This document shows positions 12,486-34,302 of a stretch of DNA of 64,000 nucleotides, piece by piece. The notes under the pieces were generated by a model, which saw nothing but the letters and a program-made list of their open reading frames with translations, did not search any database and was not told where the DNA came from. The stretch is from an uncultured virus (IMG/VR IMGVR_UViG_3300042868_009486). Its lineage: Duplodnaviria; Heunggongvirae; Uroviricota; Caudoviricetes. The stretch covers positions 1-64,000 of the IMG/VR virus record IMGVR_UViG_3300042868_009486, one strand, 5' to 3'. Position 1 is the stretch's first letter, and each line of letters starts with the position of its first letter. Position numbers and translations under genes: made by a program.

Positions 12486-13066
12486 ATATTCTAATTACAG
12501 AAGCACAATATAGTAAACTCACCGAAGACAATCTTCGTGAGTTCTTGTATTCTTTTTGGGACAGACAAAAAAAGAATGGGGAAGAACCTTTTTTGGATGA
12601 GATGTTATACCACGTTTTAGGTATTACAAAAAATAGTATAGAAGATTACCAACAAGTTAGACCGATATGGTATCGTTATAATGGTGGTAGAGAAATATTA
12701 TACGATAAATTAGTTAAGGAAATAAGTGATAAAACATTCAGATTACAAGACGACTCACAGAATTTAAACGCCGATTTTAAAGTTGTTGGATTTGATAGTT
12801 ATGAACTGAGTATCAAAATGGAAGTTGTCCTTTTAATGTTAGATGTGGACGGTAATGGTGAAATTGAAGCATTAATTTATGAAGATGATTACGGAGAAAA
12901 TTACCGAATGGAAATAGTTTCAATTTATGAAGCGTTAAACATTGCAAGAGAGTTTTACGAGACAGGTGATTTAACAGGTTATCTTAGAAGTGTAGCTTAC
13001 GATTATTTTTATAATTTACTTGAAAAATACGGATTACCAATCGATGTTGAAGTTGACATAAAATAA
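12482..13066 (+). CDS. leader-bearing hypothetical protein, distant paralogue of 10257..10817
   Basis: MNILITEAQY leader; shared W..Q/E...G...Y...GG layout. Confidence 0.7.
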   Translation: MNILITEAQYSKLTEDNLREFLYSFWDRQKKNGEEPFLDEMLYHVLGITKNSIEDYQQVRPIWYRYNGGREILYDKLVKEISDKTFRLQDDSQNLNADFKVVGFDSYELSIKMEVVLLMLDVDGNGEIEALIYEDDYGENYRMEIVSIYEALNIAREFYETGDLTGYLRSVAYDYFYNLLEKYGLPIDVEVDIK

Positions 13067-21603: not shown

Positions 21604-22048
21604 TAGAAATTTAATAAAGCAAATTCTTACTGAAGAAGTTGAAGAACCAAAAATTCTAAAAGGGATCGGTATTGTAGTTAATACACTAAAACAACAATAC
21701 CCATTTATATTAGGATGGGAATTGTCAGATGAATTAGAAACATACAAGATGATAATTTACATCAACCTCTATGTTGACTATGAAATGGTAAAAGAATTTT
21801 ATGGTTTAGAACCCCGATATGAAAAAATTTTTTATTTAGATAAGGCCCTTGTGACACCATTATCCCCATTCAAGGGAAGATATGATAATGAAGGGGTAGA
21901 TGAGGCTTTAAAAATGAATGAAGAGTTACGAGAAATGTATAAATATATCCCTGAAGATATGAAGATGATAGGATATGGTGGTTTTTCAGATGATTATAAA
22001 GAACCAATGATTGATAATTTTACTTTTGTTGATGAGACAACTAATTAG
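21593..22048 (+). CDS. leader-bearing hypothetical protein
   Basis: NLIKQILTEE leader; QQYPFILGWEL. Confidence 0.75.
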   Translation: MKINRNLIKQILTEEVEEPKILKGIGIVVNTLKQQYPFILGWELSDELETYKMIIYINLYVDYEMVKEFYGLEPRYEKIFYLDKALVTPLSPFKGRYDNEGVDEALKMNEELREMYKYIPEDMKMIGYGGFSDDYKEPMIDNFTFVDETTN

Positions 22049-22403
22049 ACATATCTTAAGAGAGTCTAAAGTGCAGACTGACATCCTCGATCTAATTAAA
22101 GATGAGGATATTTTTGTTGCCGCTAAGTTTGTTGGTGGTTTAGATAACCTAAAACAAATACTCAAAAACGAACCTGAGTATGTAACATTAATTGACTCAC
22201 TCAAAGGAAAGTTGAATCTTATTTACCACTCGTTAAAGGAATACCTTGAGTTTCCAATGAAGTTTGAGATAGTAGGTAAAGGTGAAAATGTATTTAAAAA
22301 CCAATTAAACGACATCTATGATATGATACCAAAAGAAATGGTTATTAAAGATACTTGGGGTGATATTAAACAATTAGATATTGAATATTTTAAGTTCAGA
22401 TGA
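22032..22403 (+). CDS. leader-bearing chimeric protein
   Basis: MRQLIRHILRES leader; N-half resembles module 1 of 23349..26063, C-end resembles the tail of 21593..22048. Confidence 0.7.
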   Translation: MRQLIRHILRESKVQTDILDLIKDEDIFVAAKFVGGLDNLKQILKNEPEYVTLIDSLKGKLNLIYHSLKEYLEFPMKFEIVGKGENVFKNQLNDIYDMIPKEMVIKDTWGDIKQLDIEYFKFR

Positions 22404-22723
22404 AAGATTTAATTAGAAACATATTGAAAGAAGAATCTGAAGAGATTGACCAAAAAGTTTATAACTTCCTAAGAAGAAGATATGAAATTAATGAGATTAA
22501 CATTGAAGGAGGAAGTAAGTTTAAAGAGATATATTTTAAGGTAGGTGATGAATATTATGGTGTATCTATGTGGGATAATAAAAAAAGACAAGTAAGACGT
22601 ATTTTGAATATGCTTATTGAAAACAATGTTACTGAACCAATGAGTATCTTCACAAACGAGAATGACCCATATAGACAAAAAGTTGTTAGAACTATTAAAA
22701 AGTTTTTATACGAAGTAATGTAA
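22400..22723 (+). CDS. leader-bearing hypothetical protein
   Basis: MKDLIRNILKEE leader. Confidence 0.75.
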   Translation: MKDLIRNILKEESEEIDQKVYNFLRRRYEINEINIEGGSKFKEIYFKVGDEYYGVSMWDNKKRQVRRILNMLIENNVTEPMSIFTNENDPYRQKVVRTIKKFLYEVM

Positions 22724-23352
22724 TGAAAGAATTAATTAGACACATATTAAAAGAAGAGGTTAGTAGAAAATATGATAAACCTACACCAAAGGTAGAGCAA
22801 CTTATCTACAGATGGTTGAATGATTATTTTGATGGTGTTGAGATGTACCATAAAAAATCTTATGAATCAACACATAGTTTTGATTTTTGTAAAAACGGAA
22901 GAGAAATATTGGATGTTGTTTTATATTTTGGTAATGATGACGACAATAAAAAAACTGAAGAAATGAGTTTTAATAGGGGTTTAATGAGTGTTCCAAAAAA
23001 TGTATTTGATGACTTATCCACAGATATTCCTGTGAGAGTAAGTTATTTAAGATACCTACTTGAAGAATGGTTTGATGATACTTATTTAGGTGAAATTCAA
23101 AAAAAGATGGGTAGAAATGATATCTACATTTCCGAACTTTATATAACTAATTACGACGGTGATATTTGTTTTCCGCCGATAACAAAACCTGATGATGTAA
23201 CTGAGGAAGAAATGATAGAACATATTCTTAAAACAGGAAAATATAAAATGAACGATATATTGTGGTGGGAAGAAAGATTACCAGGATGGATTGAACAAAC
23301 TTATTTAGAACAACTTAATGGTGCTGAATACAGAAGATTAAAAGGAGAATGA
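22723..23352 (+). CDS. leader-bearing hypothetical protein
   Basis: MKELIRHILKEE leader. Confidence 0.75.
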   Translation: MKELIRHILKEEVSRKYDKPTPKVEQLIYRWLNDYFDGVEMYHKKSYESTHSFDFCKNGREILDVVLYFGNDDDNKKTEEMSFNRGLMSVPKNVFDDLSTDIPVRVSYLRYLLEEWFDDTYLGEIQKKMGRNDIYISELYITNYDGDICFPPITKPDDVTEEEMIEHILKTGKYKMNDILWWEERLPGWIEQTYLEQLNGAEYRRLKGE

Positions 23353-26063
23353 AAGAACTGATTAGACATATCTTAAAAGAAAATAGACTCCAACAAGAGA
23401 TGAAACAATTTATTGAAGATAATAATATCTTTGATGCTGCTGAAATGGTTGGGGGACTGGATAATCTTAAAAGTATTTTCAAAGATGACCTTGAACTTTC
23501 TGAAATGTTAAATCAATTAACAGGTGTTGTTGATTTCGAATATCACGACGCTTGGGGAGATCCTAGATTTGTTGTATTCCCGATTGAATATGAAATAATT
23601 GGTATTAAAAAAAATATATGGGGCACACATTCTTGGCCTGAATTAAATCTTATTTATGATGACAGTAAATTAACTTCAGCAGAAAAAAAGAAACTAATAA
23701 CCATCCTTGCCACAATTCAAAATGACAATACTGTAGGAAAGATAGAAACCAACTTACCTGAAATTAAAAGTTCTGGTTATTTTGATGTTAGACAAATAAA
23801 CGGCAAAGATGTCGATATACATGATGAAGAATTCCCTTTTTCAAAAGAAGATGTGAAAAGAATACACAACAAACTTTATGGTGAGTCTGAAAGTTTAAAC
23901 GAAAGTGATAATCGTGAAACTGACAAAAATCTAAGGGCAATAAATGTATTGTTATCTTTAGTTAGTTGGGACGGGCTTTGTGATATATGGGCAGAATATA
24001 ATCCTGATGATAAAGAATATGAAATACGATCAAAAACTCTCTCAACAGATGATTTGGCGACCTCAATTACTGAAATAGAAAAAGAACTTAATTCTTTAGA
24101 GGACTCAATAAAGTCTATGGGAATCAAAGTGTATATCTACACACCGTGGTATGTGGATAGTTGTGACGATGAGGTTAAGTTCATGAACGAGAGTTCAAAC
24201 AGAAATGAAAAGGACACACAAAGACTTTTCAAAATAATAAAAATGATAATGGAAGATATGATACTTCCTGAATATGGTCATCTTATTTGTTCTTATGAAA
24301 TCACATTAAATGAAGATTTTTTCAATATACCTCAAGTTACAGTTTTATTTATTGGAGGTTACGGAACAGAATATTGGCCAGTGACCCAAGCTGTAAGAAA
24401 CATGTATAATGAGGTCTTAGATGCCATTACAAAAGAAATTGCAACCTATACAGGAGTAGTAATTTATGTTGATATGTTACAAACACCAAAGTGTGAAGAT
24501 AAAGAAAATATCTATCTGAGAGAAAGTGAATCAGAAGACAAAGATTATAGTCCTGCGGGTAAAGAAATAACACCCAATCATATTGTTGTCCATAAGTCCA
24601 ATCCAATGTACAGAGATAAGATAATGGAAAACGGTCTTAAAGTAAGAGCGGGAGAATGTTATAAAGTATATGTAGGTTATGGGGTTAAATGTAAACCAGC
24701 AATTTTTGCAACCAACTCAACAAACAAAAGAGCATGGTTTGATTCAACATACGACGATGATATTTGGTTTATTGACACAACAATGATTCCTTATGTTAAA
24801 TGGTTTAAAGATAGACATTTTGAGTCAAGGTCAAAACATATTGTAACATTTCAAGATATTCCAAAAGAGGCGATAACCCTAAAATATGAAGGAACAGGAA
24901 GTAGTGAAGATGTTTTAAATTCGTGGCCTGAAGATTCACCTAATAGATTACAAGAATCCATAAGAAGTATATTAAGGGAAGATTCATTAAAGAATGATTT
25001 AATGGAATCAGAAGATAAAAAACTTGATTTGGTTAAACAAATGATTCTTCAGTTATTTGATGAGGTTGAATATATTGAAATTGATGAAATATACGGAAAA
25101 CCTTTAATTAAAATCTATCACGATGTAGATGATACTGCAGCAAACTACGACAGTTGGTTTGAAGAAGTTATAGAAGATAAGATTGATGAAATGACAGGTG
25201 GAAATATTATTTTATGTTCATGGTGGGCACCAGTATGGCACTATAAAAGAAAGAACGCTGACTTTTTTATTGATGTTGAAAAAATTGAATATGACGATGA
25301 CGGAAATGAGATAAACGAGTCAGAAGAAAAACAACCAAAGTATTTAGACATCATCAAAGATATTGTGGAACCATTTAAAAATGAAGATTGTGTTTGTGAT
25401 ATTAGAGTTTTGTATAATGAAGAAGACGATATGTATTTAATTGATGTTGAGATTGGTTTATTTGACCTTAAAGAGAAGTTTTTTGCTGAGGTAGGAAGAA
25501 ACCATTATGTTAAAAAAATAAGACTTGATATTAAAGAAACAATCAAAGGTTACATCCCAATAGATAATTTCTATGTTGGTTCATACTCAACACCAAAATG
25601 TGGTGAGAAAAGATGGTGGGACAAAAATATAAATGAATCTGATAATAAAGAACAATCATTACAAAAACTTATAGACCAACACGGTTTATATGATTTCATA
25701 AAGATGACAGGGTTAGACTTTAATCAAGTAAAAACATTATTAAGTAAAGTAGATAACCCCAAAGAAATATTAAAACAATATATAAGAGAATTTGTTTTAG
25801 AACATGATGGGATGAGTGGTGACAATTATGGTTCACTTTTTGCGTTAAATTTACCATTGAGTGATACTAAGTATGTTAACGATATATTAGTACAAGACAG
25901 TGGTCAAAGTGCTGTTGAGATATGGGAGTATCATCTTGATGAATATGGACATAGAGAACAAAAAGACCAATATCTAACATCAATTATTACCCTAACTAAT
26001 GACGAGTTACTATCAATTCTTTCTTGGATGATGGAAGTAATAGAAGGTGGTTATTGGGATTAG
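23349..26063 (+). CDS. 904-aa multi-module putative polyprotein including an ADP-ribosyltransferase-like module
   Basis: Leader plus internal LNE|S, MNE|S, LRE|S, LQE|S..LME|S, INE|S, INE|S junctions; modules homologous to stand-alone ORFs. Confidence 0.75.
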   Translation: MKELIRHILKENRLQQEMKQFIEDNNIFDAAEMVGGLDNLKSIFKDDLELSEMLNQLTGVVDFEYHDAWGDPRFVVFPIEYEIIGIKKNIWGTHSWPELNLIYDDSKLTSAEKKKLITILATIQNDNTVGKIETNLPEIKSSGYFDVRQINGKDVDIHDEEFPFSKEDVKRIHNKLYGESESLNESDNRETDKNLRAINVLLSLVSWDGLCDIWAEYNPDDKEYEIRSKTLSTDDLATSITEIEKELNSLEDSIKSMGIKVYIYTPWYVDSCDDEVKFMNESSNRNEKDTQRLFKIIKMIMEDMILPEYGHLICSYEITLNEDFFNIPQVTVLFIGGYGTEYWPVTQAVRNMYNEVLDAITKEIATYTGVVIYVDMLQTPKCEDKENIYLRESESEDKDYSPAGKEITPNHIVVHKSNPMYRDKIMENGLKVRAGECYKVYVGYGVKCKPAIFATNSTNKRAWFDSTYDDDIWFIDTTMIPYVKWFKDRHFESRSKHIVTFQDIPKEAITLKYEGTGSSEDVLNSWPEDSPNRLQESIRSILREDSLKNDLMESEDKKLDLVKQMILQLFDEVEYIEIDEIYGKPLIKIYHDVDDTAANYDSWFEEVIEDKIDEMTGGNIILCSWWAPVWHYKRKNADFFIDVEKIEYDDDGNEINESEEKQPKYLDIIKDIVEPFKNEDCVCDIRVLYNEEDDMYLIDVEIGLFDLKEKFFAEVGRNHYVKKIRLDIKETIKGYIPIDNFYVGSYSTPKCGEKRWWDKNINESDNKEQSLQKLIDQHGLYDFIKMTGLDFNQVKTLLSKVDNPKEILKQYIREFVLEHDGMSGDNYGSLFALNLPLSDTKYVNDILVQDSGQSAVEIWEYHLDEYGHREQKDQYLTSIITLTNDELLSILSWMMEVIEGGYWD

Positions 26064-26093
26064 TCAAATAATTTTATTATATTTGCTTTTGAT

Positions 26094-26360
26094 ATGGTAA
26101 AAGATTTATCAAAAGTAATAGAACAATATGTATATACTCATCTATCACACAGAGATGATATTTTGGTGCAAGTAGTAAAATCACCAACAAGATATAAAGT
26201 CCACATAGTTATATATGTAAAACCAACCGACGGACTTTATGCCACAATCAACAAAGGTATCGACAGAGGTGATTTAATGAATGGAATTAAAGGGTATTTT
26301 AATTTGGATTGGGATAGTTGTATGATTTACACTCAAGTTAGCGAATACCAAACTGAGTAA
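26094..26360 (+). CDS. hypothetical protein (paralogue of 27552..27836)
   Basis: MVKDLS...HLSHRDDI.VQV...GLY.TINKGIDR; TATATTTG at 26078. Confidence 0.75.
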   Translation: MVKDLSKVIEQYVYTHLSHRDDILVQVVKSPTRYKVHIVIYVKPTDGLYATINKGIDRGDLMNGIKGYFNLDWDSCMIYTQVSEYQTE

Positions 26361-26371
26361 TATTTATTATT

Positions 26372-26671
26372 ATGAACCTACAAGAACAAATATCAAGAAT
26401 GAAATCAATGATGGGGGTTATTAATGAGTCTCATCTACCGACATACATTATAAGAAGGGTGACAATAGAAAAATTAGATGACTTGGTTGATGATGTGAAA
26501 GGTTTAATTGATTCGGGTTATGATAGAACCGACGCAATATACGATACCGTAAGACAATTTATTGCATCCAGTAAGAATTTTAGATTTCTTAGTTCGTCTG
26601 AACAAGAATATTGGGATTCATATATTATGTTTGAGAAGCCATTGGTGGATTATGTAAAAGAAAAGTTATGA
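26372..26671 (+). CDS. leader-bearing hypothetical protein
   Basis: MNLQEQISRMKSMMGVINE|S; TATTTAT at 26361. Confidence 0.75.
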   Translation: MNLQEQISRMKSMMGVINESHLPTYIIRRVTIEKLDDLVDDVKGLIDSGYDRTDAIYDTVRQFIASSKNFRFLSSSEQEYWDSYIMFEKPLVDYVKEKL

Positions 26672-27099
26672 TGAACCTACAAGAACATATAAGAAAGATA
26701 CTAAAGGAAGAGACATATTATAAAATTTCTGATGACAAGTATTCAAAGTTAATTAAAAATCTTATCCTTGATTATGTTAATTTTAATATATGTACATTAG
26801 TTGTTAGTGCGTTAGAATCTTTTGAAGACCAATATTTAGTTATTTTGATAGTTGAAGAACAACTTAAGTCATCTTATCGTGAGGAACTTCAAGAATATCT
26901 TAATAATTATATCCCGTTAAAAGCAATATATGTTTCCGTTTCAGATGGTCAGGACTGTCAAAATTATAAAAAAGGAAGAAGTCAACAAGAAATGAAAGAG
27001 GGTGAACTAACAGAAAGATGTTGGAAAGGATATACTCAAAAAGGTATGAAGACTATGTTTGGTAAACGTTATCCCAATTGTGTGAAGAAGAAAAAGTAA
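26668..27099 (+). CDS. leader-bearing protein with basic Cys C-terminal module
   Basis: MNLQEHIRKILKEE; LTE|RCWKGYTQKGMKTMFGKRYPNCVKKKK. Confidence 0.75.
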   Translation: MMNLQEHIRKILKEETYYKISDDKYSKLIKNLILDYVNFNICTLVVSALESFEDQYLVILIVEEQLKSSYREELQEYLNNYIPLKAIYVSVSDGQDCQNYKKGRSQQEMKEGELTERCWKGYTQKGMKTMFGKRYPNCVKKKK

Positions 27100-27518
27100 T
27101 GAAACTACAAGAAAACATAAGAAAAGTACTCAGAGAAGAGAGTCAAAAACAATCATTACTTACACTCTTAAACCAACATGGTTTATATGAATTTATGAAG
27201 ATGACAGGACTATCTCTTCCACAAATCTATACAAAGACAGGAGAACTACCAAGAGAAGTCTTTGAGAGATACATAAAAGACTTTTTAGAAAAAGATGAAA
27301 TAGGTTGGGATCTATCTATACAAATATCACCAAATAAAATAGTAGATTCATTTTATTTATCTTATGGTGTAGTTACAATAGGAGTAAATGAAGTAGATTC
27401 AATAGGTAGAGTAGTTGCTGGAAGTTTCGAAAGACTTTCAGTTTTATCTGATGAGGAAATTTTCAGTTTAGTTGATGAAATGTCACAAATCAACGATGAT
27501 TATTTGGATTATATGTAA
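27099..27518 (+). CDS. leader-bearing protein homologous to the last module of the 904-aa ORF
   Basis: MKLQENIRKVLREE; QSL..L..QHGLY.F.KMTGL shared. Confidence 0.75.
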   Translation: MKLQENIRKVLREESQKQSLLTLLNQHGLYEFMKMTGLSLPQIYTKTGELPREVFERYIKDFLEKDEIGWDLSIQISPNKIVDSFYLSYGVVTIGVNEVDSIGRVVAGSFERLSVLSDEEIFSLVDEMSQINDDYLDYM

Positions 27519-27551: not shown

Positions 27552-27836
27552 ATGGTAAAGGACTTATCAAACGCACTTATTTCATTTGTATATGATCACC
27601 TCTCACACAGGGATGATATTACCGTCCAAGTTCAAACAAACGGTAAAAAACCTTATTTCTACAGTATACATATATTAGTATACTTAGATGAACACGACGG
27701 ATTATATAACACAATCAATAAAGGAATAGATAGGTATGGACTTTACCATCAATTAAAAAAGTATTTTAATTTAACACTAGACGATTGTCGTATCACATAT
27801 CAAACCATTTATCCAACCACATCATTATGGGTTTAG
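27552..27836 (+). CDS. hypothetical protein (paralogue of 26094..26360)
   Basis: Sequence similarity; TATATTTG at 27537. Confidence 0.75.
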   Translation: MVKDLSNALISFVYDHLSHRDDITVQVQTNGKKPYFYSIHILVYLDEHDGLYNTINKGIDRYGLYHQLKKYFNLTLDDCRITYQTIYPTTSLWV

Positions 27837-28096: not shown

Positions 28097-28364
28097 AATA
28101 GAAAAACTTATATTAGATTACTTCAAGTTTGTAAACCCATTACCATGTGATGAGGTTAAAATAGAGTTTTGTGAGTTTTTTGATTTGTATACGATTAATA
28201 TTAAGAGTGAAAATTACTTAGACTACATAAGACATAGAAGAGACATACAACCAAATAGTAAAACTGTTTGTGAGGAGATAAGATACAGTATGGAAAATTT
28301 GTTTCCTTATAACTTCCGTGTGTTATGCGTAGTAGAAAGAAGAGATTTTTATAAAAAAATATAA
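28080..28364 (+). CDS. hypothetical protein
   Basis: ORF; probable start at MKDRDK. Confidence 0.5.
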   Translation: MKDRDKIEKLILDYFKFVNPLPCDEVKIEFCEFFDLYTINIKSENYLDYIRHRRDIQPNSKTVCEEIRYSMENLFPYNFRVLCVVERRDFYKKI

Positions 28365-28453
28365 TATGGAATTAGAACAAATAATTAGTATGTCGATCGG
28401 GTTATTCTCAACCTGTATGATGATCATAATTTATATAATCGGGATTAAAGATT

Positions 28454-28533
28454 AAGAGTATACGATTAAATCATTCGGTTCATAGTCCTACACTGCGTTC
28501 GGAATTCACCTCATAATTTTATCCTATACTCTT
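28454..28533. repeat. structured intergenic element, copy 1
   Basis: AAGAGTATA...TATACTCTT terminal inverted repeat around a conserved TCATTC...GGAATTCACCTCA core. Confidence 0.85.
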
Positions 28534-28566
28534 GGCTGAGTCAAAATTATATAGTATCTTTGTTAT

Positions 28567-29316
28567 ATGAAAAGGAACCGAAGTCAAGGATGGACATACG
28601 CCAAATTAAGCGGGCACAAGAATGAATCGTTAGTCAGCGAAGAGTTGGGTGATGGATACTACACTCTTGCTGGTAAGGTAGAATCTATCTTCGGTGACAA
28701 AACAACTCCTAAGCCAGACATTTATGGTGTAAAAAGACATAGTCTAAAAAAATCATTAAGTGGTCAGGTTCACATGAATAAGGTTGGTCGTTTCTTAGAT
28801 GGTTATACGATCATGTATGGTGAGATTCCGTCAAATGTATCAAAGGTGTTTTTATTATTGTTTGGTGGTAGTGATATCATTGATGAGGTTTTATCTTGTG
28901 AGGATTGCATACATCAGAATCCTAAGGTTAGAGCAACTGAAGTTAGAAGAAAGACCACCACCACAGAGACTTTGATCAAATATAATGAGGATCTCTCAAA
29001 TGAGTTTAAGTTATGGTTCAAGGACAACTTACACAACATCACGGAGTTGGTTTTTAAGAAGGGATGGAGCAAAAATGAAGGTGATTGGGTTGACATCTTA
29101 TGGTATGTTAACAAACTCGGTGACAACCAAGTTAATGAGAAATTTGACATCAACGAGATCATTGAGAAATCAAAAGGGCGTGATGTTATATATGGAACAA
29201 AGAATGGAGGAACAACCATTCAGTTACCATTTGGTCACCTACAATTTCATCAGGGAGGTCTACAATTTCATCACAATTATGAGAAGATCAAGGAATTGAT
29301 TTCTGAGAGAAAATAA
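28567..29316 (+). CDS. putative type II restriction endonuclease (MspI/HinP1I-like)
   Basis: AKLSGHKNE N-terminal helix, KPDI...SLKK, C-terminal LQF; adjacent to a methyltransferase. Confidence 0.55.
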   Translation: MKRNRSQGWTYAKLSGHKNESLVSEELGDGYYTLAGKVESIFGDKTTPKPDIYGVKRHSLKKSLSGQVHMNKVGRFLDGYTIMYGEIPSNVSKVFLLLFGGSDIIDEVLSCEDCIHQNPKVRATEVRRKTTTTETLIKYNEDLSNEFKLWFKDNLHNITELVFKKGWSKNEGDWVDILWYVNKLGDNQVNEKFDINEIIEKSKGRDVIYGTKNGGTTIQLPFGHLQFHQGGLQFHHNYEKIKELISERK

Positions 29317-29328
29317 TTATATTTAAGT

Positions 29329-30048
29329 ATGATAGATTTAAGAATGGGGGATTGTATTGACGAGATGAGAAAGATCCCATCAGACTCAATTGCGTGTATA
29401 GTTACAAGTCCTCCGTATAACAAGAAAGGATTGATCGGTAAGGTAAAACCTGGCAATCAAGTATGGAAGAAATTTAATATTGACTATGATTCATATGGGG
29501 ATGATCTAAGTGAGGTTGATTACCATAACTGGATGATCGATGTATTAAATGAGATGAAGAGAATCATTAAACCTGATGGATCAATATTCTTCAATCATAA
29601 AGCGAGAAGACATAAGAACAAGTTGCATCTTCCTACAGACTTTATCTCCAAGTCGGACTTAAATGTATATCAATTAATTATATGGAATCGTCTGTCAAGT
29701 CCTAACATTAGAAAGGATCTATTGTTGCCGTGTACAGAACATATCTATTGGTTAACAAAGGGTAAACCTAAGGTATTCAAAGATCAGATACCAAGTGAGT
29801 ATCAGTCTGAGGTGTGGATAATCAATCCTGACAAGAATACAAAACATCCAGCACCATTCCCAAAGAAGTTAGTAGAGACATGTATGTTGTTAACGACAGA
29901 AGAGAATGATTTATGTTTAGATCCGTTCTTAGGATCAGGAACCTCAGCAATTGTGGCTCGAAATAATAATAGAGATTTTATAGGGATAGAGATTGATTCT
30001 AAGTATATAGATCTAACAAATGAATTATTAGGGGACCCTTCATTGTAA
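29329..30048 (+). CDS. DNA amino-methyltransferase, beta class (N4-C/N6-A)
   Basis: VTSPPY motif IV precedes HPAPFP and LDPFLGSGT motif I. Confidence 0.9.
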   Translation: MIDLRMGDCIDEMRKIPSDSIACIVTSPPYNKKGLIGKVKPGNQVWKKFNIDYDSYGDDLSEVDYHNWMIDVLNEMKRIIKPDGSIFFNHKARRHKNKLHLPTDFISKSDLNVYQLIIWNRLSSPNIRKDLLLPCTEHIYWLTKGKPKVFKDQIPSEYQSEVWIINPDKNTKHPAPFPKKLVETCMLLTTEENDLCLDPFLGSGTSAIVARNNNRDFIGIEIDSKYIDLTNELLGDPSL

Positions 30049-30084
30049 AGATGGGGGGTTTTTATTTATAATATATTTATTATT

Positions 30085-30573
30085 ATGAATCTACAAGAAC
30101 GAGTAAGGAGAATATTAAGAGAAACCCTTGAGTCCAAATGGAACGACGGGAATTACGACTATCAGCACGGGTATTGCCATTACTTCGCACATAACATCAT
30201 AGATAAGATTAGGGAACGTTTCCCGAACAAAAACGTAACTTACTATCTTTTACTGGCAAACGAGGTTAATATTGACACGGAAGAGATAGAACAGGAGTAT
30301 TTGTTGCACGTATATATAAAGATCGGGGATAAGTTATTAGATTCCAATGGATTCATTACATTGGATAAGGTGGAGGAAAGAATAGATGATTGGTATAATA
30401 GACAACTTACAATAACACCTGAAGAGTATGAGATAAATGTATGGGATGAAGAAAGTGATACAATCCCTGATATGTTCTTTAATAGTAGATTCTGTAATGT
30501 AGATAAAGTAAAGAAAGATACGGAGAAATTCTTATCTAATCCAATAGTACAAAGGATCCTTAAGTATAAATAA
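30085..30573 (+). CDS. leader-bearing protein, possible papain/transglutaminase-like Cys-His-Asp fold
   Basis: MNLQERVRRILRETLE|S; GYCHYFA...HVYI...LLDSNG. Confidence 0.55.
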   Translation: MNLQERVRRILRETLESKWNDGNYDYQHGYCHYFAHNIIDKIRERFPNKNVTYYLLLANEVNIDTEEIEQEYLLHVYIKIGDKLLDSNGFITLDKVEERIDDWYNRQLTITPEEYEINVWDEESDTIPDMFFNSRFCNVDKVKKDTEKFLSNPIVQRILKYK

Positions 30574-30653
30574 AGAGTATACGATCAAATCATTCACTCC
30601 ATCCTACCGTTCGTAAACTCACTACGGAATTCACCTCACAAATTTATCCTATA
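30573..30653. repeat. structured intergenic element, copy 2 (right arm truncated)
   Basis: AAGAGTATACGATCAAATCATTC...CACTACGGAATTCACCTCACAAATTTATCCTATA. Confidence 0.8.
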
Positions 30654-30700
30654 TATAAACTATCGTTATTAAAGGGAGTGAATAAGATCAGGAACATATA
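30652..30700. repeat. 49-bp direct repeat, copy 1
   Basis: TATATAAACTATCGTTATTAAAGGGAGTGAATAAGATCAGGAACATATA, identical at 32767-32815. Confidence 0.9.
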
Positions 30701-30727
30701 AGAATATAACAGTTTATATAATATATT

Positions 30728-30765
30728 ATGGGTATATTTATTTAATATGGGTATATTTATTTAAT
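30728..30765 (+). repeat. 19-bp tandem duplication containing the TATTTAT motif
   Basis: ATGGGTATATTTATTTAAT x2 directly before ATG 30766. Confidence 0.9.
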
Positions 30766-31116
30766 ATGAATTTACAGGAGAGTATATATAGAATTCGTCA
30801 AATTATGGAAGTATCTGATCCGACAAAGACATTTAGTTTTGTTATGGATGGGAGGCAAGAAACTCATCAGTATCAAGTGGTTAATGTAAGTGATTCAACA
30901 AAGTCTGTACCTGTAGACAAAACAAACCCTAGAGGTGAGAAGAAAACTTTTAATACAAAGGTTATAGAATTAAAATGGATGAATCCGCCAGCAAATATCA
31001 CAAACCCTGAAGGTATTACAATTGTAAAGGTGTGTGGTGATAATGTTATCAAACCACCAAGAGGATATAGTAAATTACCTGATGACTTTATAACTTACGC
31101 AAACCAACTCTGTTAA
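30766..31116 (+). CDS. leader-bearing hypothetical protein
   Basis: MNLQESIYRIRQIME leader. Confidence 0.75.
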   Translation: MNLQESIYRIRQIMEVSDPTKTFSFVMDGRQETHQYQVVNVSDSTKSVPVDKTNPRGEKKTFNTKVIELKWMNPPANITNPEGITIVKVCGDNVIKPPRGYSKLPDDFITYANQLC

Positions 31117-31461
31117 ATGAAAAAAATTATTAGACTTACTGAAAGTGAATTGATTAACTTAGTCCATAGAGTAATTAAAGAGGATATGAGTACAGTTAAT
31201 ATTACAATCAATGGTGATGTACAAAGAGAGTGTAATAAGTGTAATGGAGACACAATAGATTATGTTATATTAAATGAGTTAAGAAATATCTCAGATCTTA
31301 CGCAGATTACCTCAGAAGATATAACATATGTAGAATATGAAATACAAAACTATTCCGATGTCAATAAGATTAAAAGTGTATTAGAGTTAAAGTTAAAGAC
31401 TTTATTAGAAAAGCAAATTACTTGTGAGGTTAACGGAAATAATATTACTTGTCAGATATAA
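31117..31461 (+). CDS. leader-bearing hypothetical protein
   Basis: MKKIIRLTESELINLVHRVIKE leader. Confidence 0.75.
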   Translation: MKKIIRLTESELINLVHRVIKEDMSTVNITINGDVQRECNKCNGDTIDYVILNELRNISDLTQITSEDITYVEYEIQNYSDVNKIKSVLELKLKTLLEKQITCEVNGNNITCQI

Positions 31462-31464
31462 ATC

Positions 31465-31551
31465 AAGAGTATAGATTTAATTTACTCACTCATCATTACC
31501 GTTCATTTCATTCACTACATTCTTCGTTTCATAATTTAATTCTATACTCTT
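31465..31551. repeat. structured intergenic element, copy 3 (diverged core)
   Basis: AAGAGTATAGA...TCATAATTTAATTCTATACTCTT. Confidence 0.8.
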
Positions 31552-31663
31552 TCCCCCCTCTCTTTATAAGGGGATTTTTATTTAAAAAAAACTTGACTTT
31601 TTCATTGTAGATATGAGGAATATCACTATCTTTGTATTGTAATCATTTAACCCCCATCACAAT

Positions 31664-32320
31664 ATGAAAAACCTTCTTTTAGTTGCTCTTGTTTCTTTAG
31701 TATCAATTGTTTCTTTTTCACAAAAACAAATAGGAGTTTCATTACTATATAATGGTAATTTACCAAAAGCGGCTTGGGGATTCTCAGTAGAGAAAACGGT
31801 AAAAAACTACACTATTTTCTTTGACTACAAAATCGGAGGAATGTTACCAGCTCAAGATAGAGTTAAAACATGGACAACTCCTGAAGAGACAAATTTTGAT
31901 AACTACTCATATGGTGTTACAGAGTGGGGTTCATATGTTTACGAATCATCAACAATCACAACAAGATACGGTACGGCAATTAAACCCTCATTGTTTAATA
32001 TTGGTGTTGGTAAAGAGATTATAACTGTCGGTAGTACAGATATTAGAATCAATTTAGGTTTAGGAGTGTGTAAAGAAAGACACCAATTAGTAAGAGAAAA
32101 TTCTTACTTTGATTTCCAACTTTATAATTTAGAATTAGTTGATTACCACGAGTCTTTCTCAGACTTAGATGTTTATTATCAAGTTGTTAGTGAAAAAAAC
32201 ACATACAAGTTAAATTTTACGGCAAATGTACTTTTCGAAAAATATGATATGTTTGTATATGGTTTTGGTTTTGACACTAAACCTATGGGTGTTAATCTAA
32301 TCTTTGGTTTAAAATTTTAA
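31664..32320 (+). CDS. secreted, probable outer-membrane beta-barrel protein
   Basis: Signal peptide, alternating aromatic/Gly strands, C-terminal FGLKF; TATCTTTG at 31627. Confidence 0.6.
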   Translation: MKNLLLVALVSLVSIVSFSQKQIGVSLLYNGNLPKAAWGFSVEKTVKNYTIFFDYKIGGMLPAQDRVKTWTTPEETNFDNYSYGVTEWGSYVYESSTITTRYGTAIKPSLFNIGVGKEIITVGSTDIRINLGLGVCKERHQLVRENSYFDFQLYNLELVDYHESFSDLDVYYQVVSEKNTYKLNFTANVLFEKYDMFVYGFGFDTKPMGVNLIFGLKF

Positions 32321-32321
32321 T

Positions 32322-32403
32322 AAGAGTATAGGATTAATTCATTCGGTTCATAGTCCTTCGTTATCACTACGGAATTCACCTCATAATTTAATTCTACACT
32401 CTT
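32322..32403. repeat. structured intergenic element, copy 4
   Basis: AAGAGTATAGGATTAATTCATTCGGTTCATAGTCCT...GGAATTCACCTCATAATTTAATTCTACACTCTT. Confidence 0.85.
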
Positions 32404-33290
32404 ATTATCGTCTATATAACCGATATCGTATATTATCGTTCATTTAACCGATATTCTATTACATCTCTATAAGAGATAAGTCCCATTAATTACCACATAT
32501 ACTTTATCGTAATGATCATTACACATTTTGTGTAACACATAATGTAGAATAGTATCGTAATGTACATTACTGTAATGGGGGTTACGATATACATGTATAG
32601 AAAATCTAATTCTTTATACATGATGAGGTTCTTATGTATAGATCGTATACATGATACACAACTTACCATTCGGTAAGTTACTACTTAGTAAGTTCCCCCC
32701 ATCTAAAGACAGGTCCCCCATTTCTTATGGTGTGGTTTAATGGTATGTTCTACTGTGGTATTCAGTTATATAAACTATCGTTATTAAAGGGAGTGAATAA
32801 GATCAGGAACATATACGAAGGGACTGTTGTTTTATATCATTGTTGTCAGGTTAAACCTGATATAAGTGATATGTTTAATATGTCCCACATATTACCACAA
32901 GTGTTGGGGACTGACTAAATGACACATAATTGGGGGTACATTAGGTCCCCTAATCGTTGGAAGAACTATAGGACTATCGTCTCCCGCCCACCCTCATCAT
33001 AAGAACACAAATTAGCTGGAAAATGTATATACCTAAAAAACTAGTCCTGTAGACCCCTACAGAGGGGATTTTTTAGGCTGATCATAGCAACAGAGGGGAT
33101 TGTGGTGGTAAATAGTGGTAGACCTGTGTGGTAAAAAGTGGGGAAAGGGATTGTCCCCTGTGTGAATCGTGACTGACATTTTGACAAAATCAAGAAAAAT
33201 ACAATAAATATTTATCAACAATTCCCCCCTGACATACTGTCACCCCCAATTTACTATTTAAAATGTATCAAATATTTATTAACATTAACG
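32404..33290. other. long palindrome-rich non-coding region, candidate replication origin or genome-end region
   Basis: No credible ORF over ~0.9 kb; many palindromes and recurring short motifs. Confidence 0.45.
32767..32815. repeat. 49-bp direct repeat, copy 2
   Basis: Identical to 30652-30700. Confidence 0.9.
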
Positions 33291-33296
33291 GTACAT

Positions 33297-33641
33297 ATGA
33301 ACGCAATAGAGAAATTTCTTAAAGAACAGTATACCCAATGTGTGGTAGAAGATAAGATGGGGATCAAATGTTTATTCAAACATAAGCAAGGACTCACAGA
33401 TGATGGGGTTGTATTTTTTGAGTTTGCAAAAAAGAAGTGGTCCAAGAAACCAATCCTTAGTAAAAGACAATTTGTAATTGTGGATGCAGACATGGGGGAT
33501 GTGTTACAGTTTTTAAATCAATACTATAACCTGTCAGAAAATGACTACCAAGAAATAAGATCACTCATAGTTAATATGAGTATAGAACATGTAGAGAAAT
33601 TCTTTAGTCCTGATGGGGAGGATCCAAGTCAACATCAGTAA
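33297..33641 (+). CDS. hypothetical protein
   Basis: ORF; TATTTAT at 33273. Confidence 0.65.
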   Translation: MNAIEKFLKEQYTQCVVEDKMGIKCLFKHKQGLTDDGVVFFEFAKKKWSKKPILSKRQFVIVDADMGDVLQFLNQYYNLSENDYQEIRSLIVNMSIEHVEKFFSPDGEDPSQHQ

Positions 33642-33907: not shown

Positions 33908-34021
33908 AAGGTATGGATTTTTTTTGACATGGCCTAATATTTATATAAGTAAAAAATAAAATTAAGGTATGGATTTTTTTTGACATGGCTTAATATTTAT
34001 ATAAGTAAAAAATAAAATTAA
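33908..34021 (+). repeat. ~57-bp near-perfect tandem duplication of a promoter block
   Basis: AAGGTATGGATTTTTTT(T)GACATGGC(C/T)TAATATTTATATAAGTAAAAAATAAAATTA x2. Confidence 0.9.
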
Positions 34022-34038
34022 CATTAAAAAATAAAACA

Positions 34039-34302
34039 ATGAGAAGAAGATTAAATGAATCAGACATAGATCGTATAGTAAGTAGAGTATTGTCTGAACA
34101 AGTTGCCCCCACTAAAGAGTTGTCAGCATGTTGTAAATCTGCAGGGATCACTGTACCTATGGCTTGTACAGCAGGAGATCCTGGCAAATGTATTGAAGCT
34201 CTTTTAGAAATGGCATCTAAAGATCCTATGGGTGTGGGGATGAAAGCAATAACTGCAATGAACTGTATTAAGGATAAGAAGTTATCGCCTGTACAATACT
34301 AA
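34039..34302 (+). CDS. leader-bearing Cys-containing small protein
   Basis: MRRRLNESDIDRIVSRVLSEQ leader. Confidence 0.75.
   Translation: MRRRLNESDIDRIVSRVLSEQVAPTKELSACCKSAGITVPMACTAGDPGKCIEALLEMASKDPMGVGMKAITAMNCIKDKKLSPVQY

Follow-up and report, generated by a model that had tools for sequence, protein, structure and literature searches.

A strand-specific hairpin element marks one variable locus in uncultured T4-like jumbo phages of lakes

We analysed a window of 64,000 nt, which is positions 1 to 64,000 of the 78,576-nt record of an uncultured virus (IMG/VR IMGVR_UViG_3300042868_009486). Here, three gene cassettes lie between four related inverted-repeat elements of ~80-87 nt each, followed by a conserved non-coding region and a conserved gene. 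The features are as follows.

28454-28533, minus strand: element copy 1, type A core (covariance model 81.7 bits); internal, at the left end of the array
28555-28562: TAnnTTTG box, promoter-like, before cassette 1
28567-30573, plus strand: cassette 1, three genes, between copies 1 and 2
28567-29316, plus strand: gene without recognised function, cassette 1
29329-30048, plus strand: N6/N4 DNA methyltransferase (PF01555, 1.3e-41), cassette 1
30085-30573, plus strand: gene without recognised function, MNLQE tag at its start, cassette 1
30573-30653, minus strand: element copy 2, decayed recombinant, a B/A chimera
30652-30704, plus strand: 53-nt duplicate of part of the non-coding region (32767-32819; 98% identity)
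30766-31461, plus strand: cassette 2, two small genes without recognised function (30766-31116 and 31117-31461)
31465-31551, minus strand: element copy 3, type C core (covariance model 89.1 bits)
31627-31634: TAnnTTTG box, promoter-like, before cassette 3
31664-32320, plus strand: cassette 3, one gene, signal-peptide-like start MKNLLL...FSQ
32322-32403, minus strand: element copy 4, type A core, taken as the resident copy; adjoins the non-coding region
32403-32458: 28-nt tandem units of the non-coding region
32404-33296: non-coding region right of copy 4, conserved in relatives
32461-32500: box ACATCTCTATAAGAG...TTACCACATAT in the non-coding region
32846-32860: hairpin TCAGGTTAAACCTGA in the non-coding region
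33054-33074: CCCCTACAGAGGGGATTTTTT in the non-coding region
33171-33186: invariant GACTGACATTTTGACA in the non-coding region
33297-33641, plus strand: group X gene, conserved 105-130 aa protein, the syntenic anchor of our locus searches

A sequence-only reading of this DNA had described the four hairpins, with shared arms, a mosaic core and no terminator T-tail, and the description proved accurate. Copies 1 and 3 both have the exact arms AAGAGTATA...TATACTCTT (2 matches versus 0.00 expected from 100 shuffles). Copy 4 has a single mismatch in its arm (TACACTCTT), and the right arm of copy 2 is truncated by its last ~6 nt. The element combines conserved ends with a variable, mosaic centre, and there are three core types among the copies. 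None of the four copies is followed by a T-run. Scanning the whole 78,576-nt record with a covariance model, we found the four copies at 81.7-89.1 bits and no fifth copy, as had been claimed for the window; the next best match (12862-12943) reached 26.8 bits with an E of 0.019. The element had no Rfam match even at E<=10, in agreement with the earlier view of an uncatalogued structured motif.

Copy 2 joins a type B left half and apex to a type A right half, and its middle stem is thereby broken. From 30652 it passes into the 53-nt duplicate, which has replaced the end of the right arm at a TATA microhomology. The four copies do sit at stop codons, as had been noticed. Copy 1 overlaps the TAA of a 29-aa ORF (28366-28455), copy 2 shares 1 nt with the stop codon of 30085-30573, and copies 3 and 4 begin 3 nt and 1 nt past the stop codons of 31117-31461 and 31664-32320, respectively. 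This placement is incidental, however: in sister clades the corresponding hairpin lies upstream of an opposite-strand gene. The neighbour that stays constant is the conserved non-coding region to the right of the element.

Cassette 1 had been read as a restriction enzyme and methyltransferase block. The methyltransferase stands, but the restriction enzyme label is unsupported: 28567-29316 has no match in Pfam, PHROGs, NCBIfam or PDB sequences. The genes of this cassette have no homologue at the same position in relatives, and the sole homologue of 30085-30573 (59% identity) lies at a different place in the genome of the relative G002. Homologues of 31117-31461 stand directly upstream of elements in two other loci (L158 and L183). 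The copies delimit gene blocks, as proposed, and the content of these blocks is phage-specific and differs among relatives. Their accessory genes encode a methyltransferase, a YceI protein, a T9SS-tailed PKD protein, an RmlD-like enzyme and signal-peptide proteins; a ~190-aa gene family forms a single-gene block flanked by two copies in 3 contigs. A promoter-like box opens 2 of the 3 window blocks and also several blocks of relatives. Extra copies occur solely where phage-specific accessory blocks are inserted, and n blocks go with n+1 copies at one locus.

The element is conserved in relatives. It was present in 80 of 80 metagenome loci fetched, among at least 121 matches of a scan that demanded an intact right arm and thus biases the counts of intact copies, and in ~14 viral contigs. 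It was absent from 50,697 cultured-phage records and from 185,579 prokaryote species genomes, the latter giving one chance pattern match without a model match. The carriers are uncultured freshwater (lake) T4-like jumbo phages, and their host is probably Bacteroidota. A complete relative of 304,365 nt (G001) has a T4-like gene set comprising portal, large terminase, gp32, PolB, DnaB-like helicase, primase, 5'-3' exonuclease and Mre11-like phosphoesterases.

Normally there is a single copy at a single syntenic position, on the left edge of a conserved non-coding region of ~0.7-1.4 kb. G001 and G004 carry 1 copy each, and G002 and G003 carry 2 each. Searching by the neighbouring protein alone, we found exactly one copy in 9 of 9 loci, in the same orientation and upstream of its gene. 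Copy 4, beside the non-coding region, has the same setting as the single copy of relatives. The motif GACTGACATTTTGACAWA of the non-coding region was found in 49 viral contigs; all 22 element-bearing loci among them have the element upstream in the same orientation, and the element itself is absent from the other 27. At least 12 of these 27 have a sequence-unrelated hairpin of the same design at the same place, while no clear analogue was found in ~15. The analogue in L247 folds at -35.1 kcal/mol (z -5.9) on the minus strand versus -21.1 on the plus strand. In four subclades with an analogue hairpin the left-hand gene is on the opposite strand. In L247-type clades a promoter-like box separates the hairpin from the leftward gene, which therefore need not share a transcript with the hairpin. 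The group X protein falls into 168 clusters, none of them named; a structure search gave no match at E<=0.001. In summary, the family is an uncatalogued ~85-nt structured element that marks one fixed, highly variable spot of the genome.

We also checked on which strand the element folds. All 63 of the 63 distinct copies compared had their lower MFE on the minus strand. Copy 1 gave -26.9 kcal/mol on the minus strand versus -18.3 on the plus strand as RNA, and copy 4 gave -30.0 kcal/mol on the minus strand (z -7.5), with the fold that the sequence-only reading had given. Copy 2 showed no rod fold (z -0.55 minus, -1.50 plus). Across type A (36 sequences, 29 pairs), 91.7% of cells were paired, versus 36-47% with the partners slid. 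Compensatory changes occurred at seven pairs, and the covariation score was 0.102 versus 0.072 for shuffled alignments, with 0 of 500 shuffles reaching the observed value. G·U pairs possible on the minus strand only filled 50 cells at 7 pairs in the 36 copies, and those possible on the plus strand only filled 0. Both 2x2 loops were GA/GA in 36/36 type A copies. Types B and C form the same rod. The fold is therefore selected, with covariation, on the strand antisense to the block genes, upholding the earlier suggestion of selection on structure, and the hairpin is very probably not a terminator of those genes.

Recombination at the copies, which had been suggested, is seen in lake contigs whose joints lack blocks and have break points in elements. 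In one joint (31528 to 32388; side 64) block 3 is missing, and in another (28526 to 31619) blocks 1 and 2 are missing. The joints from 28531/28533 to 32459/32613/32617 lead from the element directly into the non-coding region, and a further joint runs from 30034 to 30703. Several skipping joints had short sides (20-32 nt) matched at 90% likeness, and these may come from related phages, not strain variants. The window and the locus L141 have a common upstream gene and near-identical copies 1, with different blocks. Hybrid copies also occur. In L181 and L110 both sides of the middle stem are of type A and the apex is of type B, a conversion patch that preserves pairing.

Comparing copies pairwise, we find that 1953 of 2461 pairs have the element alone in common. 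Homology starts within -5 to +2 of the first element base in 327 of the 451 pairs alike on the right flank only, and ends at base 0 or +1 in 26 of the 31 pairs alike on the left flank only. Homology edges are exact at both element ends, across 73 different flank contexts. Proteins of 29 unrelated families abut the element, and the upstream stop codon overlaps its first bases in 30 of 63 cases.

Homologous recombination alone gives no account of 29 unrelated genes joined 0-3 nt from the element. Joints this exact would be more in keeping with a site-specific or structure-directed process.

Our preferred reading, which we hold to be about as apt to be right as wrong, is that the element is a structured border module giving portable homology for cassette shuffling of the PeSL kind. 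The ~85-nt rod-like hairpin would stand as the left border of the conserved non-coding stretch, which is seen as a control region. The element is an island of near-identical sequence in phages that are otherwise only 30-60% identical in protein, and this likeness would let it serve as portable homology. Copies would undergo homologous recombination and gene conversion, presumably by the phage's own T4-type recombination system, and accessory blocks would thereby be inserted, deleted and swapped, with one copy left on each side. Most exchanged blocks would bring a promoter-like box. In the window, copy 4 would be the resident, copies 1-3 would have been brought by, or left after, exchanges, and copy 2 would be a broken recombinant. 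Recombination would not be the reason for the hairpin's conservation. Most likely the hairpin acts in cis as a structure belonging to the adjacent control region, and it would be read either in a leftward transcript, of which it would be the terminal hairpin, or in the minus strand as single-stranded DNA. We infer the enzyme route by homologous recombination, a circular intermediate and the primary cis role.

Another reading, possible but doubtful in our view, is that the element works primarily as RNA of the minus strand. The resident copy would then form the terminal hairpin of a small leftward ncRNA, as its 3' end or terminator, or else make up the body of that RNA. This RNA would be made from the left part of the non-coding region, and the internal copies would be orphaned relics. 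Both the fold and the G·U pattern favour the minus strand, and the hairpins are strong with RNA parameters (-16 to -36 kcal/mol) and weak with DNA parameters (-6 to -11 kcal/mol). Tandem GA and GUA/GAA internal loops, which are typical of RNA motifs, occur in the element. In 9 of 10 phages C exceeds G on the plus strand in the first 100 nt right of the element, opposite to this genome's G-rich coding strand (positive GC skew). The same-design hairpins of divergent sequence at the same place point the same way, as do two broken or truncated internal copies (copy 2 and the partial copy of L159). However, the non-coding region showed no recognisable conserved box of a host-type leftward promoter, and no U-run follows the hairpin on the minus strand. 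Most internal copies are intact, a count subject to the scan's bias, and the box of L247-type clades separates the hairpin from the leftward gene.

We consider an integron-like, site-specific platform unlikely. The folded antisense strand would then be acted on by a recombinase or structure-specific nuclease, from an unfamiliar family or supplied by the host, and circular gene-plus-element units would be inserted exactly at the element ends. attC sites fold on the bottom strand, antisense to the cassette genes, and the element's fold is alike in this. Its conserved ends and variable mosaic centre, the n blocks with n+1 copies at one locus, the exact edges and the stop codons of unrelated upstream genes over its first bases all agree with such a platform. 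Against it, profile searches of 5 records found no tyrosine (PF00589, 0/5) or serine (PF00239, 0/5) recombinase, and for PF01797 the sole match was a sub-threshold Y1-HUH fragment (18 bits, 33 residues) in G001; the tyrosine recombinase or HUH nuclease looked for on the strength of the earlier reading thus did not emerge. The 234 ORFs of at least 130 aa scanned in G001, a set that leaves aside 12 spanning fetch boundaries and all shorter ones, included no recombinase, transposase or RT family. Taken together, these searches recognised no family of integrases, serine recombinases, HUH enzymes or transposases. The hybrids (L181, L110 and copy 2) switch at varied places, including the internal conversion patch, which fits homologous exchange and not one fixed crossover point. 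The promoter-like boxes of the blocks are unlike integron cassettes, and the element ends are unlike attC core sites, as judged by the attC consensus.

A replication signal is quite unlikely. The hairpin would form on one DNA strand at an origin-like region with iteron-like repeats and conserved hairpins, serving priming or helicase loading as in single-strand origins, and the fragility of the site would make it recombinogenic. Consistent with this, the element has one copy per genome, and in the 304-kb relative its locus is among only five non-coding gaps >500 nt. The region bears repeated GTGGTAA/TTACCAC-type motifs and small inverted repeats, the position is independent of the left gene's orientation, and the fold is strand-specific. 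But GC skew tracks the coding strand with no turn at the locus, in the window or G001, and in the neighbouring group X protein no DNA-binding or initiator fold was recognised. The DNA-parameter stabilities are low, and up to four copies are tolerated.

Very unlikely is a sense-strand 3' element of the upstream genes, acting as terminator, RNase III-type processing site or mRNA stabiliser. The element lies 0-3 nt past, or overlaps, the stop codon in 43 of 63 contexts, and it is certainly within the sense transcript if there is no earlier termination. Its ~20-bp outer stem forms on the plus strand too (-10 to -21 kcal/mol), and the promoter-like box comes next in 2 of the 3 internal window positions and several relatives, a terminator-promoter-like order. 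Yet no U-tract follows, the variation preserves pairing on the other strand only, and the plus-strand interior consists of TC/TC mismatches and an open pyrimidine loop. G001, with hundreds of genes in 304 kb, has one copy, the sister-clade analogue lies upstream of the left neighbour and not after it, and a distinct hairpin of the ordinary terminator-like sort, with a T-run, comes after copy 3 (~31553-31583). A MITE jumping within phage or host genomes can hardly be entertained: terminal inverted repeats, sharply defined ends and a modest enrichment of T in front of the element (43/73 contexts) and of A behind it (42/73) stand against one syntenic locus and orientation throughout, the one copy of the complete genome G001, no consistent target duplication, no transposase in the searches above and absence from the prokaryote and cultured-phage genomes.

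Membership of the attC or REP classes, offered in the sequence-only reading, is not supported: besides the dissimilar ends and the recombinases that the above searches did not find, the copy number is 1 per genome, not hundreds. T4-type phages provide a published precedent for cassette shuffling (PMC2839356, PMC4122927). Against our preferred reading, PeSLs contain a promoter, number ~50 per genome and fold as sense-strand terminators, whereas the element contains no promoter, is single-copy and folds on the antisense strand.

The sequence-only reading had placed four hairpin copies in the window, each next to a stop codon, and had seen no others. We recovered all four, each adjoining a stop codon, together with the gene blocks between them and the region on their right. 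The plus strand is sense to the block genes and the minus strand is antisense.

28454-28533, element, copy 1
28567-30573, gene block 1
30573-30653, element, copy 2
30766-31461, gene block 2
31465-31551, element, copy 3
31664-32320, gene block 3
32322-32403, element, copy 4 (the resident copy)
32404-33296, non-coding region
33297-33641, plus strand, group X gene

The arms AAGAGTATA and TATACTCTT occur as an exact pair, 40-70 nt apart, twice in the window, against none expected from 100 shuffles. As described earlier, copy 4 has a single mismatch in an arm and the end of the right arm is missing from copy 2. From 30652 on, copy 2 runs into a 53-nt stretch with 98% identity to 32767-32819. Using a covariance model made from eight element copies, we obtained scores of 81.7-89.1 bits for the four copies in the window, while the next-best place in the whole 78,576-nt record scored 26.8 bits. 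Rfam 15 gave no match at gathering score in the window and none on the copies at E ≤ 10 (28300-33400), and the window held no tRNA or tmRNA. The CACTNCGTT units were also considered as a dispersed binding motif; this was rejected, as they showed no enrichment outside the elements.

Across the family, the element measures 80-91 nt. Its ends, (T)AAGAGTATA and TATACTCTT(A), were found in 49/73 and 71/73 contexts, respectively, and the conserved unit stops on the right exactly at ...CTCTT. Promoter-like TAnnTTTG boxes, the consensus of which we assume here, lay outside the conserved unit, in non-homologous DNA, where they were present. An exact-arm scan of viral contigs returned 79 loci, mostly by chance, with true copies in six. 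With the covariance model, we counted one copy each in the related viral genome records G001 and G004 and two copies each in G002 and G003. These four loci and the window are syntenic despite protein identity of only 30-60%: a paralogous gene family lies on the left, and an ORF-free stretch of 0.7-1.0 kb followed by the small, conserved group X gene lies on the right. When the group X protein was the only query, nine loci were returned, each with exactly one element, upstream and in the same orientation as the gene. An invariant 18-nt motif beside the group X gene was found at 49 viral loci. The element was present at 22 of them (20 single-copy and 2 two-copy), upstream of the motif and in constant orientation in 22/22.

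Scanning metagenome contigs with a degenerate right-arm pattern, we found at least 121 loci. All 80 that were fetched had model hits, and seven contigs carried two copies. Among 185,579 prokaryote species genomes, the sole pattern match was a chance one in Riemerella, with no model hit. The 50,697 cultured-phage records held no true match and a single 26-nt chance hit, and blastn of the region against cultured phages gave methyltransferase hits in cyanophages only. We found no description of the element in the literature, where the jumbo-phage and antisense-hairpin topics were checked in outline only.

The non-coding region next to the resident copy (~0.7-1.4 kb, without conserved ORFs) is kept in at least ten phages. 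Matching stretches are at 32404-33296 of the window and at the viral loci L092, L093, L094, L095, L099 and L103-L106. Its many conserved blocks include the following.

32846-32860, hairpin TCAGGTTAAACCTGA
33054-33074, CCCCTACAGAGGGGATTTTTT
33171-33186, invariant GACTGACATTTTGACA
within the non-coding region, covarying hairpin GTCCTAAAGGAC / GACATAAATGTC
within the non-coding region, GTGGTAAA-type repeats

Rfam gave no match for this region, which may serve as an origin or regulatory hub, or encode one or more non-coding RNAs. On the plus strand directly right of the element, C exceeded G in 9/10 phages; a GC-skew search for an origin returned coding-strand skew and no other signal. The ACATTTCTATAAAGGATATGT... 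motif right of the resident copy was considered as a promoter and set aside; its orientation is ambiguous, and it is absent in G001, G003 and another phage locus, L103. The group X protein has no family name, and Foldseek against the PDB gave no match at E ≤ 0.001 for its predicted model, which is a good one (pLDDT 84.5).

We also observed a ~21-nt core with ATGT/ACAT flanks right of the element (32461-32500; L099, L104-L106 and many metagenome loci). Its orientation varies by phage, reading GTCCCATTAATTACCAC or GTGGTAATTAATGGGAC, and it resembles an inverted segment or a dyad operator. Between the element and this core lie 0-2 small modules, depending on the phage, each with its own inverted repeats (TTACCGT...ACGGTAA, AACGAGAGTAAT...TTACCTTCGT and TTATCGTC...ACCGATAT).

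The minus strand of the element folded better in 63/63 distinct copies, a preference that base composition alone could account for. Selection on the structure had been suspected earlier, and the decisive support for it lies in how the copies vary. The element's centre occurs in three versions, core types A, B and C. Among 36 distinct type A copies, seven pairs showed compensatory changes, and 0/500 shuffles matched the score. In the same 36 copies, the 29-pair rod of type A was paired in 91.7% of cells, compared with 36-47% when the partners were slid. Pairs that are G·U on the minus strand only were found in 50 cells at seven pairs, and those that are G·U on the plus strand only in none. Both 2x2 internal loops had GA opposite GA in 36/36 type A copies, where the sense strand would have TC/TC. 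Types B and C formed the same rod, with more one-sided G·U changes. As the changes preserve pairing on the minus strand, the element does not appear to be a terminator or processing hairpin of the preceding genes. An intrinsic terminator was rejected in any case on the A+U-rich stem and the absence of a T-run on either strand; that no T-run follows any of the four copies had been seen in the sequence-only reading as well.

The predicted folding energies were -16 to -36 kcal/mol as RNA versus -6 to -11 kcal/mol as DNA, and these stronger RNA values favour an RNA reading over single-stranded DNA. In the non-coding region, no TAnnTTTG host-type box was conserved on either strand, and no leftward promoter was found. 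We interpret the resident copy as a cis element belonging to the neighbouring control region, presumably read as a leftward RNA or as ssDNA.

Twenty-seven motif-bearing loci are without the element. At least 12 of them had a rod hairpin of 90-117 nt in the corresponding position, which is 550-870 nt upstream of the motif (the four loci of the L247 group, L264, L265, L266, L272, L282, L284, L287 and L292). The end sequences of these look-alikes have no relation to those of the element, but the design is the same. Purines are abundant on their minus strand, which folds far more stably, with a long A+U stem followed by short helices that are split by GA/GA loops; for the L247 hairpin, the energy was -35.1 kcal/mol (z -5.9) on the minus strand versus -21.1 kcal/mol on the plus strand. 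In four look-alike subclades, the left gene lies on the minus strand and the hairpin is ~20 nt upstream of the gene start. Thus, the constant partner of the hairpin is the right-hand non-coding region, and not the 3' end of a gene.

The window's IMG/VR record is rated 27% complete, and the stretch was contained in 20 lake-water DNA runs. We characterized the phages through G001, a related complete record of 304,365 nt. The Pfam scan covered 234/246 of its ORFs of at least 130 aa, the remaining 12 crossing fetch boundaries and thus lying outside the scan. It showed a T4-type portal, large terminase, prohead protease and baseplate proteins, along with gp32, PolB, a DnaB-like helicase, primase and a sigma-70-family protein. 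Type IX secretion (T9SS) sorting domains are found on proteins of G001, and a T9SS-tailed protein is encoded in the G002 cassette. The best cultured matches of the portal were from Microcystis and Flavobacterium phages (38%). Taken together, the T4-type gene set, the T9SS proteins and the portal matches point to T4-like jumbo phages, probably of Bacteroidota.

The same two genes stand at either end of G001 (L228:650-3523 and L243:1746-3774), one for a glutamine-synthetase-like protein and the other for a methyltransferase with DUF3310. This suggests that the record has a terminal repeat or that its assembly was circularly permuted. Unusual host-like genes of G001 include a PAS/GAF histidine kinase, a ClpB-like AAA+ chaperone, DnaJ, an Fe/Mn superoxide dismutase, a ferritin-like protein, a GMP reductase/IMPDH-like enzyme, and sulfotransferases with APS kinase. 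A large glycosyltransferase block lies on its minus strand.

The claim that the copies delimit gene blocks held for the three blocks in the window, and block content was found to differ among relatives. Wherever there are several copies, n+1 of them always enclose n blocks, and the block genes are missing from relatives at that place. The single block of G002 comprises four genes, that of G003 two and that of L141 six; L183 has a block of two genes, and L159, L161, L172 and L185 each have a single-gene block. One family of ~190 aa makes up a single-gene block in three contigs. The encoded functions include a DNA methyltransferase, a YceI-like protein, a T9SS-sorted PKD protein, an RmlD-like reductase and several signal-peptide proteins. 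The label of restriction endonuclease that had been given to 28567-29316 found no support and was dropped. Copy 1 is near-identical in the window and L141, which also share the small gene upstream of it, and the blocks that follow are wholly different. Array-mates usually differ in core type (A, B/A, C, A in the window), which argues that the arrays were built from different lineages and not by local duplication. The upstream ORF was clear for 63 copies and belonged to 29 unrelated families; its stop codon overlapped the first bases of the element in 30/63.

Other repeats were noticed in and around the array. The unrelated small genes at 26372, 26671 and 30085 have a common start of ~14-40 nt encoding MNLQE... 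(repeat families D1 and D4), and varied starts of this type are at 27098, 30766 and 49607. Directly upstream of gene 30766, positions 30723-30773 hold a tandem duplication of 19-20 nt, and one lake run showed a form minus 20 nt at 30744. Two tandem 56-nt units with 98% identity (33908-34019; family D8) lie directly upstream of gene 34039-34302. Left of the array are several paralogous genes (26094-26360 / 27552-27836; 22011-27518), including those for paralogous 88-aa and 94-aa proteins with 56% identity, and both 22011-22403 and 27078-27518 repeat N-terminal portions of the 904-aa ORF 23349-26063. The region left of the array looks hyperplastic and built from repeated modules.

Contigs from four lake runs had breaks at the elements, some of them skipping blocks. 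The joint 31528->32388 (shorter side 64 nt) lost block 3, and 28526->31619 lost blocks 1 and 2. The joints 28531/28533->32459/32613/32617 led from the element directly into the non-coding region, at a depth of 10-23 versus ~10 for the window's form, and a further skipping joint was 30034->30703. Several of the skipping joints had short sides and the contigs were placed at 90% likeness, so that some could come from closely related phages and not from variants of the window's strain. Whichever source they have, these contigs show that the block-free arrangement exists in near relatives.

The copies themselves carry marks of exchange. Copy 2 is a chimera of a type B half and a type A half with its middle stem unpaired. 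In L181 and L110, a type B apex sits between type A middle stems on both sides, as an internal patch with pairing kept. Comparing 500-nt flanks, we found the element alone in common in 1953/2461 copy pairs; in pairs with one common flank, homology ended at the first or last base of the element. The best explanation for the occurrence of several copies is by analogy with the PeSLs of T4-type coliphages, through exchange at intergenic stem-loop units. The extra copies would then be by-products as well as substrates of homologous exchange.

The exact joints to 29 unrelated genes are the chief observation that homologous exchange alone leaves unexplained, and this keeps a structure-directed or site-specific process alive. 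In its strongest form, the element and the look-alikes would be a new class of strand-specific element, either antisense folded DNA or a small tandem-GA RNA. They would define a dedicated gene-capture site at which a structure-directed enzyme of unknown family joins genes to the ends, as an integrase-less phage counterpart of the integron; we consider this unlikely. No tyrosine recombinase (PF00589) was found in the five records, complete genome included (0/5; control genomes 14/14), and no serine recombinase in the same five. Transposase, HUH and RT families were absent from the 234 scanned ORFs of G001. The sole match to PF01797 (Y1-HUH) covered 33 residues of a 71-aa open frame (G001:C1:121064-121162, in L097) at a sub-threshold 18.4 bits. 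This fragment is probably due to chance, yet it is the sole hint of an enzyme acting on ssDNA.

For uncultured lake jumbo phages, probably of Bacteroidota, the element gives accessory-gene gain an address, where methylases, surface and secreted proteins, and sugar-modifying enzymes turn over. Metagenome searches for this single border hairpin can lead to the cargo that varies across an entire phage clade. It is also a clear case of antisense-strand selection, and in the sister clades unrelated sequence of the same design has taken its place. This pattern calls for a reader, be it a protein, a polymerase or a nuclease.

Of the known systems, PeSLs come closest. As outlined in the two papers on them, they are conserved intergenic stem-loop units that serve as exchange points for ORFans, with a sigma-70-type early promoter inside, ~50 copies per genome, and a stem-loop shown to terminate sense transcription (PMC2839356, Arbiol et al. 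2010; PMC4122927, Comeau et al. 2014). Like PeSLs, the element is a short conserved intergenic stem-loop motif in T4-like hyperplastic regions and begins where the upstream gene has its stop codon. Its copies flank ORFans and accessory genes that vary between relatives, and exchange between copies gives insertions, deletions and replacements. However, its conserved unit has no promoter, and it is a single-copy element at one fixed locus, with at most four copies seen and one in G001. Another difference is its elaborate rod, in which the tandem GA loops are invariant and for which selection acts on the antisense strand. The element and PeSLs share no sequence similarity.

The sequence-only reading had proposed, as one option, an attC-like or REP-like site. 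With attC, the element shares an imperfect palindrome of comparable size whose ends are conserved and whose centre varies. Both follow cassette genes directly at their 3' ends, in arrays of blocks split by sites, and in both the folded strand is antisense to the genes. No integrase was found in the complete relative, though, and the ends AAGAG.../...CTCTT are not core sites (R''/R') under what we take to be the attC consensus; on these points the element does not qualify as an attC. Moreover, its locus has no attI/Pc platform, its blocks are often multi-gene with promoter-like boxes of their own, and its hybrids resemble homologous exchange. Single-strand signals such as the complementary-strand origins of ssDNA phages, plasmid single-strand origins and mitochondrial OriL are likewise strand-specific, orientation-dependent imperfect hairpins, read only when one strand is unpaired. 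They belong to replicons with a single-stranded stage, whereas the element showed no sign of priming or initiation and no sequence likeness to them. REP/BIME units and MITEs are also small intergenic palindromes with sharp ends and possible recombination substrates. REPs are 20-40 nt long, occur in hundreds of copies and have a RAYT gene, whereas the element keeps to one locus, normally in a single copy, and has no partner enzyme; the PF01797 fragment below threshold and the copy number of 1-4 do not make it a REP. MITEs, which are dispersed with target duplications, were rejected, since the element is not dispersed, its flanks showed no target duplication but just a modest preference for T on the left and A on the right, and no transposase was found among the scanned ORFs. 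Were the joining site-specific, the element would stand for a new type of gene capture; were it to supply homology only, the PeSL principle would reach beyond the coliphages to a distant T4-like branch, with a different anatomy.
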